DNA from: Alphaproteobacteria bacterium | GTDB taxonomy: Bacteria; Pseudomonadota; Alphaproteobacteria; UBA828 | Assembly: GCA_963422645.2 (NCBI GenBank) | Contig: CAXXVO010000002.1 | Location: 96,001-160,000 of the forward strand | Direction: 5' to 3' | Length of the DNA stretch: 64,000 nt | Shown here: one piece after another, positions 1 to 64,000 of the stretch | Layout: each line of letters starts with the position of its first letter | How positions within the stretch are numbered: the stretch's first letter is position 1 | The notes under the pieces: model-generated | The model's input: only the letters and a program-made list of their open reading frames with translations | What the model was told of the DNA's origin: nothing | Database searches by the model: none | Program-made: the position numbers and the translations under genes

Positions 1-1420
1 AACGCCCGGCTTCGGGAGGAAAATGCCTGGCTTCGGCAGCAGAACGCGCGGCTGGAAGAGCAAGTCGCGCGTCTCGTCGAGCGCATCGAGGAGTTGGAGC
101 GCCGTCTCGGCCTCAACAGCGGCAACAGCGGCAAGCCGCCTTCGAGCGATGGGCTGAGGAAGCCGAATTCGAAGCGGCGAACCCGAAGCCTGCGCGGCAA
201 ATCGGGCCGCAAGCCCGGTGGCCAGCCCGGCCACAAGGGCAAGACGCTGCGCCGCGCCGATCACCCGGATCGGGTGAAGGATCACGTCCCGGCTTCCTGC
301 AAGGGATGCGGTTCGCCGCTTTCGGACGCGGCCAGGGCGGGAACGCCCGTCGCCCGCCAGGTGTTCGATCTGCCCGAGCCGAGCCCCCTGGAGGTGACCG
401 AGCACCGGGCGCATGCCAAGTGCTGCGGGCATTGCGGGACGGTGACCCGGGCGGCGTTCCCCGACGGGGTGTCGGCGCCGGTGCAGTACGGCCCGCGCAT
501 TGCCGGGGTGGCGGTCTACCTTCAGCACGCTCACTTCCTGCCGGAGGATCGGCTGTCGCAGGTGATGGCCGAGCTCTTCGGCGCGCCGGTGACGGCTGCG
601 ACGTTGGCGACGATGAGCGAGAGGGCGGCCGAGCGGCTTGCGGGACGCGGCCTTGCACATACAGGACCTGGCGGCGGGCACGGCGCGGGTGAAACACATG
701 GACGAGACCGGCTTGCGGATCGGCGGTCAGACGCAGTGGCTTCATGTGATCTGCACGCCGCTGCTGGCGGCGTACCGGGTCAGCGGCAAGCGCGGCGCCC
801 TGCTCTCGGGTGTCTCCGGCATCGTCGTGCACGATCACTGGAAGCCGTACTTCGCGATGGAAGGGGTGGAGCACGGCCTGTGCAACGCCCATCACCTGCG
901 GGAGTTGCAGGCGCTGGTGGACATCGAAGGGGAGGCTTGGGCCCGGCGGATGCAGCAGCTCCTGCGCCGAGCCAATCGCGCCGCCCGCATCGCGCTGGAC
1001 AAGGATATCGCCGTTCCGGCGAGGCTTGTGGCGCTGATCGAGCGCCGATACGACGAGATCATCGCCGATGCGCTGGCCTTTCACGAGAGCCAACCACCGT
1101 TCTCGCCTGGCAAGAGGAAGAAGCGCCGGAAGCGAAGGATCGGTCACAATCTGGCCTTGAGGCTGCGCGACCACAAATGCGCGGTGCTCCGGTTCCTGAT
1201 CGACCTCGAGGTCGGGTTCACGAACAACGAGGCCGAGCGCGACCTTCGGATGATGAAGCTGCGCCAGAAGATCTCCGGGGGCTTCCGGTCCGCGCAGGGG
1301 GCCGAGAACTTCGCCATCCTGCGCAGCGTCATCACCACCGCCAGAAAGCAGGGCTGGAATATCATCGAAGCCCTGACCAGCCCATCGGATCGGCTCATCG
1401 CCACCGTCAAGTGCGCGTAA
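1..1420 (+). pseudogene. IS66-family transposase (TnpC type), 5' end outside the window, one frameshift near 638
   Basis: Coiled coil, NSGKPPSSD, GGQPGHKG, CxxC motifs, DETG, HDHW, CNAHHLREL, TNNEAERDLR, QKISGGFRS; split between ORF frames 94.. and 638..1420. Confidence 0.85.
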
Positions 1421-1688
1421 GCTCACCTGGCACGGGTTCTCCAACAGCGGAGCCATTCTCATAAACGATCATGGTCGACGCCGTGCTGGACCACCCCATA
1501 GAATGAAAATCGGTGCCCGTCGCGCGGGCGGACTTCGGGCCACATCGGGGTAGCTTACCGGTCGCAGTCCGCAAGAGGGGCATCGTGAGCTGTGAAACCC
1601 GGCGACCCCAGAGGAGCACACGGGCGTCGCGTGGGTAGCGTTGTGCCGAATCCCAGAGAATTTTCACAGCAAGAACCTGGGCAGTTAC
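1..1688 (+). mobile_element. IS66-family element, left part outside the window; right end ...ACCTGGGCAGTTAC at 1675-1688
   Basis: TnpC-like ORF plus a terminal sequence ending in TTAC that is identical to the right end of the element at 49017-51478. Confidence 0.85.
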
Positions 1689-47527: not shown

Positions 47528-48710
47528 GTCACCTGGCACTGAAGCAGGGTTCATTGTAGGGTGGCTCTCCGAGTCGGACAGAGGAGGTCATCTCGATGGC
47601 GCGCGGTACGGGACGGCCGCTGGCGGCCCTGGTCTTGAGCGGTGAGGAGCGGTCGTTTCTGGAAGCGCAGGTTCGCCGCCACCGTGTGGCGCGCTCCATG
47701 TCGGATCGCTGCCGCATGATCCTGCTTTGCGCGGACGGGCTTGGCAACAAGGCGGTGGCCGCAGAGATCGGCGTGCACGAACACACCGTCGGCAAGTGGC
47801 GGAGGCGCTTCGTCAAGGACCGCATCGAGGGTCTGTCGGACGAACCCCGGCCGGGACGGCCGCGGACCATCGCGGACGAGAAGGTGGCGCAAGTGATCGA
47901 GCGGACGCTCACCTCGACGCCTGCGGACGCCACCCACTGGTCGCTGCGCTCGATGGCGAAGGAGGCGGGGCTGTCGCACACGTCGATCTGGCGCATCTGG
48001 GGCGCCTTCGGCCTGCAGCCCCATCGGGCCGAGACCTTCAAGCTGTCGGCCTATCCGCACTTCGTGGAGAAGGTCCGCGACATCGTAGGCCTCTACATGT
48101 CGCCGCCGGATCGCGCGCTGGTGCTCTGCGTCGACGAGAAGAGCCAGATCCAGGCCCTCGACCGTACACAGCCGGTCCTGCCGATGCTGCCGGGCATCCC
48201 TGAGCGGCGCACCCATGACTACAAGCGCAACGGCACGACCTCGCTCTTCGCCGCCCTCGACGTTGCCACCGGCTCGGTCATAGGCAAGTGCTATCGCCGC
48301 CACCGGGCCAGGGAGTTCCTCGACTTCCTGAAGGTGATCGATCGCAATGTCCCGGACGGACTGGACATCCACGTCGTCATGGACAACTACGCCACCCACA
48401 AGACGGCGGGGGTCAAGGCCTGGCTGGCGCGGCGTCCGCATTGGCACGTTCACTTCACGCCGACGTCGGCGTCGTGGATCAACCAGGTCGAACGCTGGTT
48501 CGCCGAGCTGACACGCAAGCAGCTGCAACGCGGGGTGCACCGCTCCACCCTCCAGCTCGAGGCCGACATCCGCGCTTTCATCGAAACCCACAACGAAAAT
48601 CCTCGACCCTTCAGGTGGACCAAATCAGCCGACGACATCCTCGCTGCCGTCAAGCGCTTCTGCCTTCGGGTCGAACAAAACTTATGCCACGAACTTTAGA
48701 TTTAGGTGAC
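47528..48710 (+). mobile_element. IS630-family element, copy 2 in direct tandem (transposase 47596-48699)
   Basis: Identical protein; separated from copy 1 only by TA at 47526-47527; followed by TA at 48711-48712. Confidence 0.95.
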
Positions 48711-48712
48711 TA

Positions 48713-49016
48713 GGGCGTGGACTCATTAGCGCGCAACCAGATGCGGATTGTGGCGAGTTTGATCATCGCGAGGTAGTTTGCGGCGAGTTTTTCGTAGCGT
48801 GTTGCGGTGCACCTGAACTGCTTGAGTTTGGTGAAGAATCGCTCGACCCGATTACGCAGGCGGTGGAGAATGTGACTGAAGGCATGGGCAGCCTTGGCGT
48901 TGCTGCGGTCGGGAATGATCGCCACGGCGTCCTGCGCCTCGATCATCGTTCTGATCCATTCGGCGTCGTAGGCCTTGTCGCCGAGGAGGAAGCTGTCTGC
49001 AGGAAGTTGATCTTCG
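48713..49016 (-). pseudogene. 3' fragment and right end of an IS5-family (IS427-like) transposase, truncated by IS66
   Basis: GDKAYDA, IIP, RNRVERFFTKLKQFR..ATRYEKLA.NYLAM. Confidence 0.85.
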
Positions 49017-49111
49017 GTAACTACCCAGGTACCCCGCCGCCAGTTCTGAGTGCGTGCTGATGTTGCTTGCCGTCGGTGCCGTTTCGCCGTCGGCGCGTCG
49101 TTGATCCCCGC

Positions 49112-49140
49112 TTGACTGTATAGGTTCTCTCGCCTATGGG
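49112..49140 (+). promoter_or_regulatory. Putative sigma70 promoter of the methyltransferase-transposase operon
   Basis: TTGACT-N17-TATGGG; the same arrangement TTGACC-N17-TATGGA recurs at 63681-63709 in the related element. Confidence 0.5.
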
Positions 49141-49168
49141 TTGCACTCTCGCATGAGAGGAGCAGCCG

Positions 49169-49837
49169 GTGGGGTATTTCGGGTCGAAGGCGACGACCGG
49201 TCTGAGCCAGGCGCTGATTGCGCTGATGCCGCGGCACTCTGTCTATATCGAGAGCCATCTTGGGGGCGGGGCGCTGATGAAGCGCAAGCCTGCGGCCATG
49301 CGCTCGATCGGGATCGACCGCGACGAGCGGGCGCTTGAGGCCTTTGGCTGCGACTACCCGGTGGAGTTGGTGCACGGCTGCGCCCATTCCTTCCTGGCCT
49401 CGTTCCCGTTTCTGGGCCCGGAGCTGGTCTACAGCGATCCGCCCTATCTGCACGCGACCCGGCGTTCGTCGCAGCGCTACCGCTTCGAGTACGAGGAGGC
49501 CGACCACGTCGCGCTCCTCGAACTGCTCAAGGGTCTGCCCTGCCAGGTGATGGTCTCGGGCCACCCGTCTGCGCTCTATGACGAGCTGCTGGCGGGCTGG
49601 CGCCGGCTGGCGCTGCAGGTGACGACCCAGGCCCAGGTGCGGACCGAGGTCGTGTGGTTCAACTTCGCGCCTGACCGGGTGCACTGGGCGAGCTTCGCCG
49701 GCCGGAACTTCACCGAGCGCCAGTGCATCAAGCGCAAGGCGGCCAACTGGGGCCGGCGCTACGAGGCCATGCCGGCGGGCGAACGCCTGGCGGTGCTGGC
49801 CGCGATCATGGCCGTCGAGGCCGACGAGGGTTCGTGA
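49169..49837 (+). CDS. Small D12-class (Dam-like) N6-adenine DNA methyltransferase
   Basis: YFGSK (motif X), ESHLGGG (motif I variant), GID, YSDPPY (motif IV), RTEVVWFNF. Confidence 0.8.
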   Translation: MGYFGSKATTGLSQALIALMPRHSVYIESHLGGGALMKRKPAAMRSIGIDRDERALEAFGCDYPVELVHGCAHSFLASFPFLGPELVYSDPPYLHATRRSSQRYRFEYEEADHVALLELLKGLPCQVMVSGHPSALYDELLAGWRRLALQVTTQAQVRTEVVWFNFAPDRVHWASFAGRNFTERQCIKRKAANWGRRYEAMPAGERLAVLAAIMAVEADEGS

Positions 49838-51376
49838 CAGTGTCGCGCTGGCACGAGGACCTCGCTGCCCACGACGAGGCCTTCGCGTGCCTGCAGGACC
49901 TTTTCACCCCACAATCCTTCGCAATGACCGCCGTCAAAGCCATTCGGGAATGGGGCCAGAGGTTGCTGCGCCTGAGCGCGGCCCTGGTCAAGGAGAACGA
50001 CGCGCTGGAGCGGGAGAACGCCCGCTTGCGCGAGCGGATCGCCGAACTCGAGCGCAGCGCCGCGCTCGACAGCACCACCAGCTCCAAGCCGCCGGCCAGC
50101 GACGGTCTGAAGAAGAAGAGCGGTGACCGGGAGAAGCGCACCCGGAGCCAGCGCGGCAAGTCCGACAGGCCCAGTGGCGGCCAGCCGGGCCACAAGGGAA
50201 CTACCCTGGAGCGGACCGCGACGCCCGACCATGTCGTCGATCATGATCCCGTCCGCCTGTGAGGGCTGCGGCGCGCCGCTGTCGGACGCTGACCGTCACG
50301 GAGCCCCCGTCTGCCGGCAGGTCTTCGATGTGCCCGAGCCGCAGCCCCTCGAGGTCACCGAACATCGCGGCCATCGTTGCCTCTGCGCTGCCTGCGGCAC
50401 CGTGACGACAGCCGTCTTCCCGAACGGCGTGAGCGCACCGGTCCAATACGGGCCGCGCATCACCGCGTGGGTGACCTACCTGCTGCACGCTCAGTTCATT
50501 CCCGAGAAGCGGGTCGCCGAGGTCATGAGCGACCTCTTCGCGGTCAAGCTCTCAACAGCCACCATCGTCGCCATGGGAAGGCGCACCGCCCGGCGCTTCG
50601 AGGGCTTCCTCGATCGCCTCGCGGAGATCATCCGCACCGCAGCCCCAGTCAAACACCTCGACGAGACCGGCATCCGCATCGCCGCCCGGACCCATTGGCT
50701 CCATGTGCTGTGCACCCCGTTGCTCACCATCCTGCGCGTCGCCACCGGGCGCAGCCACATCGACGAGAAGCTCAACGGCATCGTCATCCATGACGACTAC
50801 GCCACCTACTTCGCTCTCGAGGGCGTGCGCCACGGGGCCTGCAACGCCCATCACCTGCGCGAGCTCCAAGCCCTCATCGAGATCGAGAAGGAAGACTGGG
50901 CAACGAGCACGCACCGGCTCCTCATCCGTGCCAACAGAGCCGCCCGCTTCGCCCACAAGAACGACCGCGACGTGCCCGCCTCACTGGTGGCCCGCATCTC
51001 GCGAGCCTGGGACCGCATCCTCGAACGTGCCATCGCCTCTCACGAAGAAATGCCACCGCTCCAGACCGGAAAGCGCGGACGACAAAAGCGCCGCATCGGT
51101 CACAACCTCGCCCTCCGACTCCAGAAGTACAAGGAGGGGTGCCTGCGCTTCCTCACCGATCCGCGAACCCCCTTCTCCAACAACGAGGCCGAGCGCGACC
51201 TCCGAATGGGCAAGCTGCGCCAGAAAATCTCAGGCGGCTTCCGCTCGATACAAGGCGCCCGCGACTTCGCAAACCTGCGATCCGTCATCGCCACCGCTCG
51301 AAAACAGCGCTGGAATGTCCTCGAAACCCTGGCGCACCCCGATCCAATCCAGCTGATCCCCGTATTGCGCTTCTGA
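49834..51376 (+). pseudogene. IS66-family transposase, one frameshift near 50250
   Basis: GTGA overlap with the methyltransferase stop; SSKPPASD, GGQPGHKG, DETG, CNAHHLREL, NNEAERDLR, QKISGGFRS. Confidence 0.85.
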
Positions 51377-51575
51377 AATCCTGCGCTGCTCCGGGAAAGC
51401 GCCGCCTGACCCCTGGCTGGTCAGAACCATCAATCCATCACGTCCGAGTGCTCGGCAGAATCAGACCTGGGCAGTTACATGGCGGCCACAGGACTTTGAC
51501 TTGCATCCCATGATAGCATAATTTGCTGGCAAAATAGCCTATGAGCAGGCTGCCAACCCTGCCGGAGCCGCCGAC

Positions 51576-51833
51576 ATGAGCACAAGCATTACCGTCCGCG
51601 ACATCGATCCCGGAGACAAGTCCTGGCTCCGACGCGAAGCCCGCCAGATCGGCGTGTCAATGGAAGAGCTGGTCCGCCGTCTGATCCACGAGAAGCGTAC
51701 CAGGACCGAGCGCCGTCTGAAACCGTCCGAGGTCTTCGCACGGCATTTCGGGGAGGAGCACGGCGTCGAGCTTCCGCCTCCGCTCCGTCGCGGCTATCAG
51801 TCGCTGTCGTTCTCCCGTGAGGACGAGGAATGA
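51576..51833 (+). CDS. FitA-like ribbon-helix-helix antitoxin
   Basis: SITVRDID...LRREA..GVSMEE.VRRLI; ATGA overlap with the PIN gene. Confidence 0.8.
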   Translation: MSTSITVRDIDPGDKSWLRREARQIGVSMEELVRRLIHEKRTRTERRLKPSEVFARHFGEEHGVELPPPLRRGYQSLSFSREDEE

Positions 51834-52279
51834 CCGCCTCACTGGCGTGGCTGATCGACACGAACGTCGTCTCCGAAATGATGCGACAGCGGCCCGAGCC
51901 GGGGGTCGGGGCTTTTCTCGATTCGATTGCCGACGAGGGCCTTGGCCTCGCCTCCATCACCGTCTGGGAGGTGCTTGACGGCATCGGCCGGCTCGACCCC
52001 GGCCGGCGACGGCGCGACCTCGCTGACCGGTTCCAGGACCTTGTCGACGAGTTGTTCGAGGACCGGATCGTCGAGTGGTCCTTGGCCGATGCGCAGGCAT
52101 GCGCGCGGATCATGGAAGAAAAGCGCCGGCGCGGGGAGGCGCTCGACGACCATGTACCGGATGCCTTCCTCGCCGCGGCGGCCGCCACGCGAGGCCTCGC
52201 CGTCGTGACCCGCAACGCGGGCGAGTTCCGCAATACCGGCGTTAAGACTGTCGATCCATGGACGGCAGGACCGCGATGA
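51830..52279 (+). CDS. VapC/FitB PIN-domain toxin
   Basis: LIDTNVVSE, ITVWE, DAFLAA.A, VVTRN..F, DPW. Confidence 0.9.
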   Translation: MTASLAWLIDTNVVSEMMRQRPEPGVGAFLDSIADEGLGLASITVWEVLDGIGRLDPGRRRRDLADRFQDLVDELFEDRIVEWSLADAQACARIMEEKRRRGEALDDHVPDAFLAAAAATRGLAVVTRNAGEFRNTGVKTVDPWTAGPR

Positions 52280-63596: not shown

Positions 63597-63833
63597 GTAA
63601 CTACCCAGGTACCCAATCCTGAGTTGAGGACGGTGATTATGGCGGCGGCCGCGGCCTGGTTCTGCCACCGCGATTGGTTCTTGACCTCATAGAGTTGCGG
63701 GACTATGGACTGCTCTCTCGCGTGACGGGAGCGGTCCATGGGGTATTTCGGCTCGAAGGCGACAGCAGGTCTGTGCCAAGCGCTGATTGCGCTGATGCCG
63801 CCGCACTCCGTCTACATCGAAAGCCACCTTGGG
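63597..63833 (+). mobile_element. Left end of a second methyltransferase-bearing IS66-type element; methyltransferase 63738-63833 interrupted by IS21
   Basis: GTAACTACCCAGGTACCC identical to 49017-49034; MGYFGSKATAGLCQALIALMPPHSVYIESHLG is 29/32 identical to the 49169 protein. Confidence 0.85.
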
Positions 63834-64000
63834 TGTCAATCGGCTTTCAATACTGACCCCCGATCGGCGTGCAAAATTGACCCCCCTGAGTGGCACGGCG
63901 GAGGTTGTCCCGGTAGCCAATAGGGGGGACCCGCGCGGCTTCGTGTGGCGCCCTGCGCTACGCGGAGCGAAGCCGCGTGGGGGGTCCCTGTTGGCCCACC
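63834..64000 (-). mobile_element. End of an IS21-family element (continues beyond the window)
   Basis: TGTCAATCGGC..TGACCCCC-GATCGGCG..AAAATTGACCCCCC with tandem ~24-bp subterminal repeats typical of IS21 ends. Confidence 0.75.

Follow-up and report, generated by a model that had tools for sequence, protein, structure and literature searches.

The 64,000-nucleotide window analysed here (positions 96,001 to 160,000 of contig CAXXVO010000002.1, Alphaproteobacteria bacterium assembly GCA_963422645.2) contains, at 49017–51478, an insertion sequence of the IS66 family with GTAAC...GTTAC ends, in which the transposase gene tnpC is preceded by a gene for a 222-aa protein of the Dam fold that is related to the plasmid protein Upf31. 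This gene and its promoter, hereafter the cassette, regularly accompany IS66 tnpC; the gene is under purifying selection, and an operator-like dyad occupies a fixed position in the promoter. Based on these observations and on published experiments with Upf31, the cassette protein is proposed to be an autorepressor of the cassette–tnpC operon that acts through the dyad, a role that is considered probable, though far from assured.

Organization of the element

The following features were assigned to the element.

49017–49030, plus strand: left inverted repeat GTAACTACCCAGGT, 14 nt, 13 of which are complementary to 51465–51478; the copies start exactly at its first base
49112–49140, plus strand: putative promoter with −35 TTGACT (49112–49117), a 17-nt spacer and a weak −10 TATGGG (49135–49140)
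49120–49137, plus strand: operator-like dyad ATAG-N10-CTAT at element position 104, between −35 and −10
49169–49837, plus strand: Upf31-type Dam-fold gene, 222 aa, without target-recognition insert; GTG start, TGA stop
49834–51376, plus strand: IS66 tnpC, broken in this copy; the first frame is 49834–50262 and the remainder lies in another frame
50248–50250, plus strand: C-run with one extra C, private to this copy (1 of 13 aligned copies), which frameshifts tnpC
51465–51478, plus strand: right inverted repeat ACCTGGGCAGTTAC, pairing with the left repeat; the copies stop exactly at its last base

The element comprises a 152-bp leader, the 669-bp Dam-like gene, tnpC and about 100 bp beyond it. 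The two genes overlap in the sequence GTGA, with the GTG start codon of tnpC at 49834–49836 and the TGA stop codon of the first gene at 49835–49837. A 14-nt inverted repeat is weak evidence when taken alone (the match is longer, 19 nt, in the sister family B described below), but the ends were fixed independently by the copies in the genome and by their target duplications. The region carries every feature that an earlier note on this DNA had listed for it, including the IS66-type element between matched inverted repeats, the 222-aa Dam-like open reading frame (ORF) and the GTGA overlap with TnpC.

Three points had gone unnoticed in the same note: the frameshift in tnpC of the window copy, its missing target duplication and the lack of a promoter call for it. 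Positions 49834–50262 encode the DUF6444/leucine-zipper part and end in a stop codon, and the zinc-finger and DDE part continues out of frame to 51376; in intact copies of the element, TnpC has 513 aa. The extra C at 50248–50250 is missing from one RNA-library contig. A programmed frameshift in the window tnpC was ruled out, the frame being intact in 12 of the 13 aligned copies. Profile searches matched PF03050 (1.9e-38) and zf-IS66 in the C-terminal frame, as well as NF033517 (3.8e-81, 273 bits against a cut-off of 180). Neither tnpA nor tnpB was found upstream of tnpC, where the Dam-like gene is the sole ORF, and the element fits the tnpC-only IS66 subgroup, not the canonical group.

Promoter and operator-like dyad

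A sigma-70 scan of window positions 48950–51600 called no promoter and no terminator, and the putative promoter is missed by the scan because its −10 box is TATGGG. The homologous promoter of locus L095, TTGACA-17-TATGCT, scores 10/12, and the distance from TTGAC to the start codon is fixed in most lineages. The dyad was compared in the 130 nt upstream of the gene at 29 non-redundant loci, comprising copies borne by insertion sequences and seven plasmid homologues. The pattern AT(A/C)G-N10-C(T/G)AT occurs in 22 of the 29 upstream regions, against 0.39 expected from shuffling, and the stricter form with flanking C and G occurs in 10 of them, against 0.04 expected. At the insertion-sequence loci, the dyad always starts 8 nt after the start of TTGAC, within the spacer between −35 and −10, and its arms are constant while the 10 nt between them vary among lineages.

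The plasmid homologues from Xanthomonas and Shewanella have CATAG-N10-CTATG, whereas in pA1 the homologue (L107) is preceded by CATCG-N10-CGATG, placed immediately behind TTGACA; in our reading, a longer palindrome surrounds CATCG...CGATG in a Citrobacter homologue. The right arm, CTAT, coincides in part with the −10 box, and most of the weight in this comparison therefore falls on the left arm. Across the genome of the window, 79 of the 83 ATAG-N10-CTAT sites fall in cassette promoters, one per element, and this genome-wide site search found none in the inverted repeats. Family C, an IS66 family of the same genome without the cassette gene, is also without the dyad at its promoter.

The dyad spacer of family A, to which the window element belongs, is itself the site of another insertion. 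An unrelated high-copy insertion sequence with ends CAGACTTCCTGACCTC and an apparent 5-bp duplication, AGGTT, sits at element positions 106–111 (window 49122–49127) in at least 16 left-end fragments and in both orientations, for example at G000:C8:778501-779640 and G000:C10:125238-127870, and one different relative was found at the same spot. This looks like an insertion sequence that prefers the operator of another insertion sequence as its target.

The cassette protein and its relationship to Upf31

The cassette protein carries the motifs YFGSK, HLGGG (residues 30–34) and DPPY (residues 90–93), as the earlier note had read them, with motif I and DPPY in alpha-class order. A Pfam scan returned nothing at E ≤ 0.01; PF02086 reached 15.6 bits, below its cut-off of 22, and TIGR00571 reached 27 bits against a cut-off of 114.85, over residues 85–154 only. 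Within the family, 37 of 39 members match PF02086 at E ≤ 0.1. A profile of the 39 homologues matches DpnM (1.6e-9) and, in two pieces, E. coli Dam, with query residues 12–58 aligned to Dam 17–62 and query residues 72–147 to Dam 162–243. The very short region between motifs I and IV remarked on earlier is evident in this profile alignment, in which about 100 residues of Dam are represented by about 13 of the cassette protein and a target-recognition region was not found. The Dam region without a counterpart is the one responsible for GATC recognition.

An AF2 model of the protein (pLDDT 91.2, pTM 0.85) predicts a Rossmann-type methyltransferase core followed by two long C-terminal helices (residues 181–200 and 203–221), and the top Foldseek matches of the model are Dam and DpnM, with TM values of about 0.5. 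As modelled, the cassette protein is a Dam/DpnM fold that lacks the recognition insert of about 100 residues and has gained a basic C-terminal helical hairpin. Homodimer predictions scored 0.25 and 0.21, against a mark of 0.42, values that speak neither for nor against a dimer. Residues D90, P91, P92 and G32 are invariant in the 39 sequences. Among 118 close homologues, the motif-I pattern is kept in all 118, DPPY in 117 and an RxxIKRK-like sequence, part of a conserved C-terminal RxxIKRK..W motif, in 115; DPPY is also kept in 104 of 110 representatives of at least 200 aa. The catalytic half of the protein is matched by type II and phage methyltransferase models from PADLOC and PHROGs. Homologues are numerous, with 2,873 proteins in one search and 5,949 representative clusters (479 at E ≤ 1e-30) in the other. 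Copies bear record labels from several phyla, although short insertion-sequence contigs are easily misplaced in metagenome bins.

The closest studied relative is Upf31. In a plasmid collection, 198 records matched the cassette protein, all at less than 60% identity, of which 134 are conjugative plasmids, and upf31.0 of IncP-1beta plasmids is among these matches. Upf31 of pBP136Km shares 43% of 224 aligned positions with it (E 4e-62), covers cassette residues 1–220 and retains HLGGG and DPPY. According to Elg et al. (bioRxiv 10.1101/2024.02.05.579024), Dam-type GATC methylation by Upf31 was not detected by restriction digest, and upf31 expressed from a vector in the methylation-free E. coli strain ER2796 gave no kinetic signal by SMRT (single-molecule, real-time) sequencing. 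The same preprint reports that Upf31 represses its own promoter from 4.76 to 0.09 XylE units, a result obtained with an R751/pBP136 hybrid protein, that its effect on plasmid persistence needs the C-terminal domain, which was modelled as a dimerization domain, and that Upf31 imposes a cost on its plasmid in E. coli. With an autorepressor as the nearest studied homologue, and with neither GATC methylation nor an SMRT signal recorded for it, the name methyltransferase that the earlier note gave to the cassette protein is unproven.

The two proteins are similar over their full length and have the same Dam-like core and C-terminal helical domain, and in both cases the promoter has a dyad directly after the −35 box. 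Upf31 is an autorepressor by experiment, with no detectable methylase activity. It differs from the cassette protein in that it is encoded by a plasmid backbone gene with no link to a transposase, its proposed partner KorB has no counterpart in the insertion sequence, and its half-site is CATCG, compared with CATAG in the insertion sequence.

Copies and sister families in the genome

Copies of the element (family A) were counted by blastn against its own genome (5.9 Mb, 23 contigs). Thirteen full-length copies, at 99.8% identity or more, have the same first and last bases as 49017–51478; one more copy is 97.3% identical, and five lack the first 105 bp. Intact-length copies measure 2,461 bp, and perfect 8-bp direct repeats flank 11 of the 14 copies examined. 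The presence of identical copies with exact ends and 8-bp duplications indicates a recently active insertion sequence. The same search yielded 38 high-scoring matches at about 82% identity, representing a sister family (family B) of 2,508 bp with a 19-nt inverted repeat, 8-bp duplications and the same two-gene layout. Family C measures 1,889 bp, contains tnpC only, has 8-bp duplications and ends in ACCTGGGCAGTTAC like family A; the full-length copies listed for it are about 99.7–100% identical. Families B and C are each represented by a partial copy in the window.

1–1688, plus strand: right 1688 bp of a tnpC-only IS66 cousin (family C), with the same terminal 14 nt, no cassette and no dyad
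63597–63833, plus strand: left end of a family-B copy, comprising the inverted repeat, the dyad-bearing promoter and ~32 initial codons of the cassette gene, then interrupted

Both had been pointed out before. The second copy at 63597 proved to be the left end of the 82% sister family, with the same first bases as family A, TTGAC...CTATGG and 29 of 32 residues in common, and the sequence that interrupts it (63833–64000) is foreign and starts with TGTCAATCGGCTTTC. The element at 1–1688 does share the right inverted repeat, and its left part, which was to be checked, turned out to be that of a tnpC-only element.

By genome-wide tblastn, the cassette gene was covered over at least 200 residues in 76 matches. 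Among 156 large TnpC matches, those at 65–100% identity have the cassette gene just upstream in 74 of 82 cases, and those of the 55% class (family C) in 0 of 71. The genome therefore holds at least 76 cassette-bearing copies alongside at least 71 family C copies with the same ends. Since family C has reached this number without the gene, the cassette gene is dispensable in cis for spread of the backbone. The tnpC of family C is split over two frames (element positions 115–1665 and 839–1621) in both copies that were translated, which include G000:C9:96545-98433. Either this frameshift is programmed, or the related transposases from families A and B, whose terminal 14 nt are the same, mobilized the whole burst of at least 71 copies in trans.

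Between families A and B, the cassette gene has a dN of 0.070 and a dS of 0.307 (dN/dS 0.226), and tnpC has a dN of 0.153 and a dS of 0.625 (dN/dS 0.24). Purifying selection across copies, one of the checks that had been suggested, is thus seen at a dN/dS of 0.23 between the sister families and supports the cassette gene being an integral, selected part of the element. The dS of the cassette gene (0.31) is half that of the adjoining tnpC (0.63), a deficit that could reflect gene conversion, exchange of cassettes between families or extra constraints on the DNA. Among the strong cassette-gene matches listed in the genome, only two contain internal stops. The gene is patchily distributed among relatives: any cassette match was found in 6 of 18 congeneric genomes, and a strong match in only three of those six.

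Association with tnpC and movement of the cassette

At 71 of the 80 genome loci that encode close relatives of the cassette protein, an IS66 tnpC lies directly downstream of the cassette gene. For the metagenome, 68 of 80 loci had at least 500 nt of downstream sequence and could be used; 64 of these 68 match the TnpC panel and L177 matches by PF03050, giving 65 of 68, and the start of tnpC is visible in 7 of the 12 short contigs. The metagenome scan was performed with a 10-sequence alignment of close relatives, the 39-sequence profile being too variable, and because of this choice of query the sample is biased towards the L095-type lineage. The co-occurrence with IS66 TnpC for which the earlier note had called is borne out by both sets. 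Its view of a stable insertion-sequence lineage with a methyltransferase as an integral partner stands in part: the gene is integral and selected, but the carriers do not form one lineage, and family C spreads without the gene.

The cassette proteins of family A and L095 are 69% identical, whereas their TnpC proteins are 30% identical; for L095 and L097, the corresponding values are 87% and 21%. The ends differ as well, being GTAACTACTCACCC in L095 and L100 and a different 29-nt inverted repeat, GTATCCGTTCAG..., in L097. In six loci (L085, L086, L090 and L092–L094), the cassette promoter and gene are held by an IS701-like element of 2,781 bp together with a gene for a 490-aa DDE_5 (PF13546) transposase. 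The element is bounded by inverted repeats of its own, CTCGACTTTGTACATTT, with a 5-bp duplication, CTNAG, and its cassette protein is 81–85% identical to that of the window. Because the ends and TnpC differ within IS66 and an IS701-like carrier exists as well, the promoter and gene are a movable cassette and not a single lineage; at least three backbones, each with different ends, have acquired it. The junction between cassette and tnpC is a GTGA overlap in A, B and L099 and a gap of about 30 to 340 nt in other lineages. Metatranscriptome contigs from three studies contain relatives of both genes at 90–99% identity, one of them spanning the junction; as DNA carry-over is possible, they hint at co-transcription weakly at best and were not counted as evidence of expression.

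Several further arrangements were observed around the cassette. The opposite strand of the IS701-like element encodes a 175-aa ORF that is conserved (L092:3472-3999, minus strand, with counterparts in L085 and L090) and had no Pfam match. In one metagenome contig (L109:633-3130), the cassette is followed by a 557-aa ORF with DUF4277, a domain found N-terminally in some IS4/IS1634-type transposases, and this single instance may represent a further partner family. The IS1380-family transposase ISSp1 of a Sphingobium plasmid was considered as a third partner family and was rejected as a chance insertion, since ISSp1 and the methylase-like region are separate in many records. Two solo cassettes of one genome (L087:3867-4692 and L088:3865-4692) consist of an open gene with its promoter and part of the left inverted repeat, with no tnpC. 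They are 94% identical over 828 bp, one has an IS630-type gene downstream, and they may still be maintained.

Proposed regulation and alternative explanations

In the proposed mechanism, one promoter would drive both genes, first that of the Upf31-type protein and then tnpC. The small protein would bind (C)ATAG-N10-CTAT(G) between the −35 and −10 boxes, probably as a dimer, and the bound protein would repress its own synthesis together with that of the transposase. The transposase could thereby be kept low and self-limited. This reading is suggested by the autorepression of Upf31, the fixed position of the dyad, the co-occurrence of dyad and gene, and, in A, B and L099, the overlap of the cassette stop codon with the tnpC start. 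Several points weigh against it. The mechanism leans on a homologue at 43% identity, and the conservation of the dyad may be partly that of the promoter, as the CTAT arm overlaps the −10 box. The relaxed dyad is absent from 7 of the 29 upstream regions, and the −10 box of the window copy (TATGGG) is poor, with no promoter called by the scan. Near-invariance of DPPY and motif I would seem to exceed the needs of a pure DNA-binding repressor. In addition, tight translational coupling is not general, because the gap between cassette and tnpC varies among lineages.

Conservation of the catalytic motifs would be expected if the cassette encoded a site-restricted adenine methyltransferase that flips and methylates the A of CAT(A/C)G in the dyad, or other sites of the element, so that transposase expression is tied to methylation state and replication, as with host Dam for IS10 and IS50. 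This explanation, in essence that of the earlier note, is regarded as rather unlikely. Hardly any variation is seen in DPPY or the motif-I pattern, strand 2 ends in an acidic residue that the family retains in our reading of its alignment, the fold is that of Dam/DpnM, and the half-site has a conserved CAT. The SMRT test of Upf31 was apparently performed without the operator being supplied, and a very rare target could have escaped detection. However, the sole experiments on a family member gave no GATC methylation and no kinetic signal; the Dam recognition insert is missing, and the cousin family with the same ends spreads without the gene. The inverted repeats are also without the dyad, which lies once per element in the promoter, and no sign was seen of the marking of ends that the earlier note had considered possible. 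In a narrower form, judged doubtful to the same degree, methylation would be confined to the two CAT(A/C)G half-sites in the element's own promoter dyad, which would provide each element with a private epigenetic switch. Fully methylated or protein-bound DNA would be the off state, and hemimethylated DNA after replication, or newly arrived unmethylated DNA, would give a burst of transposase. If true, this form would explain the near-invariant DPPY and S-adenosylmethionine (SAM) motifs, the null signal of Upf31 in a host without the operator and the repeated recruitment of the cassette by unrelated transposases.

Mobile-element-borne orphan methylases are thought to shield incoming DNA from restriction, and the cassette protein could be a broad or low-specificity orphan adenine methyltransferase that protects the incoming element, a vector plasmid or host DNA, although this is improbable. 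Its plasmid relatives are found mostly on conjugative plasmids (134 of 198 records), the PADLOC and PHROGs methyltransferase models match its catalytic half, and the lost recognition insert could mean lost specificity. On the other hand, a low-specificity enzyme would be the easiest to see, and Upf31 gave no detectable genome-wide methylation in ER2796; a shielding role would also leave unexplained the fixed-position dyad tied to the gene and the constant position of the gene upstream of, and in the same direction as, the transposase gene. A selfish hitch-hiker, or a passenger whose function is directed at the host, that regulates only itself and does nothing for transposition is given similarly little credence. 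Such a cassette would agree with the movement of gene and promoter between unrelated backbones, with the persistence of tnpC-less remnants with left inverted repeat and cassette in one genome (L087 and L088), and with the tnpC-only family C outnumbering the cassette-bearing families. Yet in A, B and L099, where the genes overlap by stop and start codons and a second promoter is not apparent, tnpC must be driven from the cassette promoter, and recruitment that recurs in one position and orientation suggests that the element benefits. Neutral carriage is also unlikely because Upf31 burdens its plasmid in E. coli.

Relationship to known insertion sequences

Little is understood of the accessory proteins of IS66, a large family marked by GTAA ends and 8-bp duplications, in which the ISBst12 group has tnpC alone. 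The window element resembles the tnpC-only, ISBst12-like elements ISGst1 and ISGka4 in its IS66 DDE transposase with an N-terminal DUF6444/leucine-zipper part, the lack of tnpA and tnpB, the 8-bp target duplication and the ends starting with GTAA. The transposases of these two Geobacillus elements are 34–37% identical to the window TnpC. In contrast to them, the window element adds the 222-aa Dam-fold gene, with its own promoter and dyad, in stop/start overlap upstream of tnpC. With canonical IS66 elements, which contain tnpA, tnpB and tnpC, it shares the transposase family, the style of the ends and the overlapping of small genes upstream of tnpC, whereas its upstream gene is unrelated to TnpA and TnpB (the sole match being the weak one to PF02086), and there is one accessory gene compared with two. 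For the nearest TnpC relatives on plasmids, identity does not exceed 47.5%, and the tally of genera from the cassette-protein search contains none of their host genera.

Control of IS10, IS50 and IS903 by host Dam involves a host methylase and GATC sites in the promoter and inner end, as described in the relevant passages of PMC9296519, which contain nothing on the cassette–IS66 arrangement. In the window element, too, an adenine-methylase-type protein is linked to the transposase promoter, an analogy that holds if methylation occurs. The window element differs in bringing its own Dam-like protein and in having a site other than GATC.

The transposase family, the end structure and the Upf31/Dam-like family are already known. 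A literature search on IS66 combined with methylase, methyltransferase or passenger genes, with ISfinder outside its scope, found no description of the arrangement; the earlier note likewise knew of no characterization. As far as this search shows, the regular union of cassette and IS66, the transfer of the cassette between backbones and the conserved dyad are new.

Surroundings of the window copy

The window copy lacks a target duplication, its flanks being gatcttcg and atggcggc, and it abuts a 3' fragment of an IS5-type transposase gene (the last 101 codons, minus strand, cut at 49016), the other half of which is not on the far side. Because of these two features, the copy is concluded to have undergone rearrangement. 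It is surrounded by an insertion-sequence graveyard (47596–49016 and 51576–52279), with an IS630-type transposase gene at 47596–48699 on one side and a FitA-like antitoxin and PIN toxin pair, within 51576–52279, on the other.

Implications

The window element belongs to a widespread IS66 group of environmental bacteria with a Dam-fold gene, and not tnpA or tnpB, as the accessory gene. Upf31-type genes are labelled "DNA adenine methylase" on many plasmids and insertion sequences, and the present finding warns against this label. It also provides a concrete candidate role for these genes with a defined DNA site, at which the protein may be a repressor or a site-restricted methylase. Cassette-bearing and cassette-less copies with the same ends occur together in one genome, and this natural comparison could show the effect of the accessory gene on transposition dynamics.

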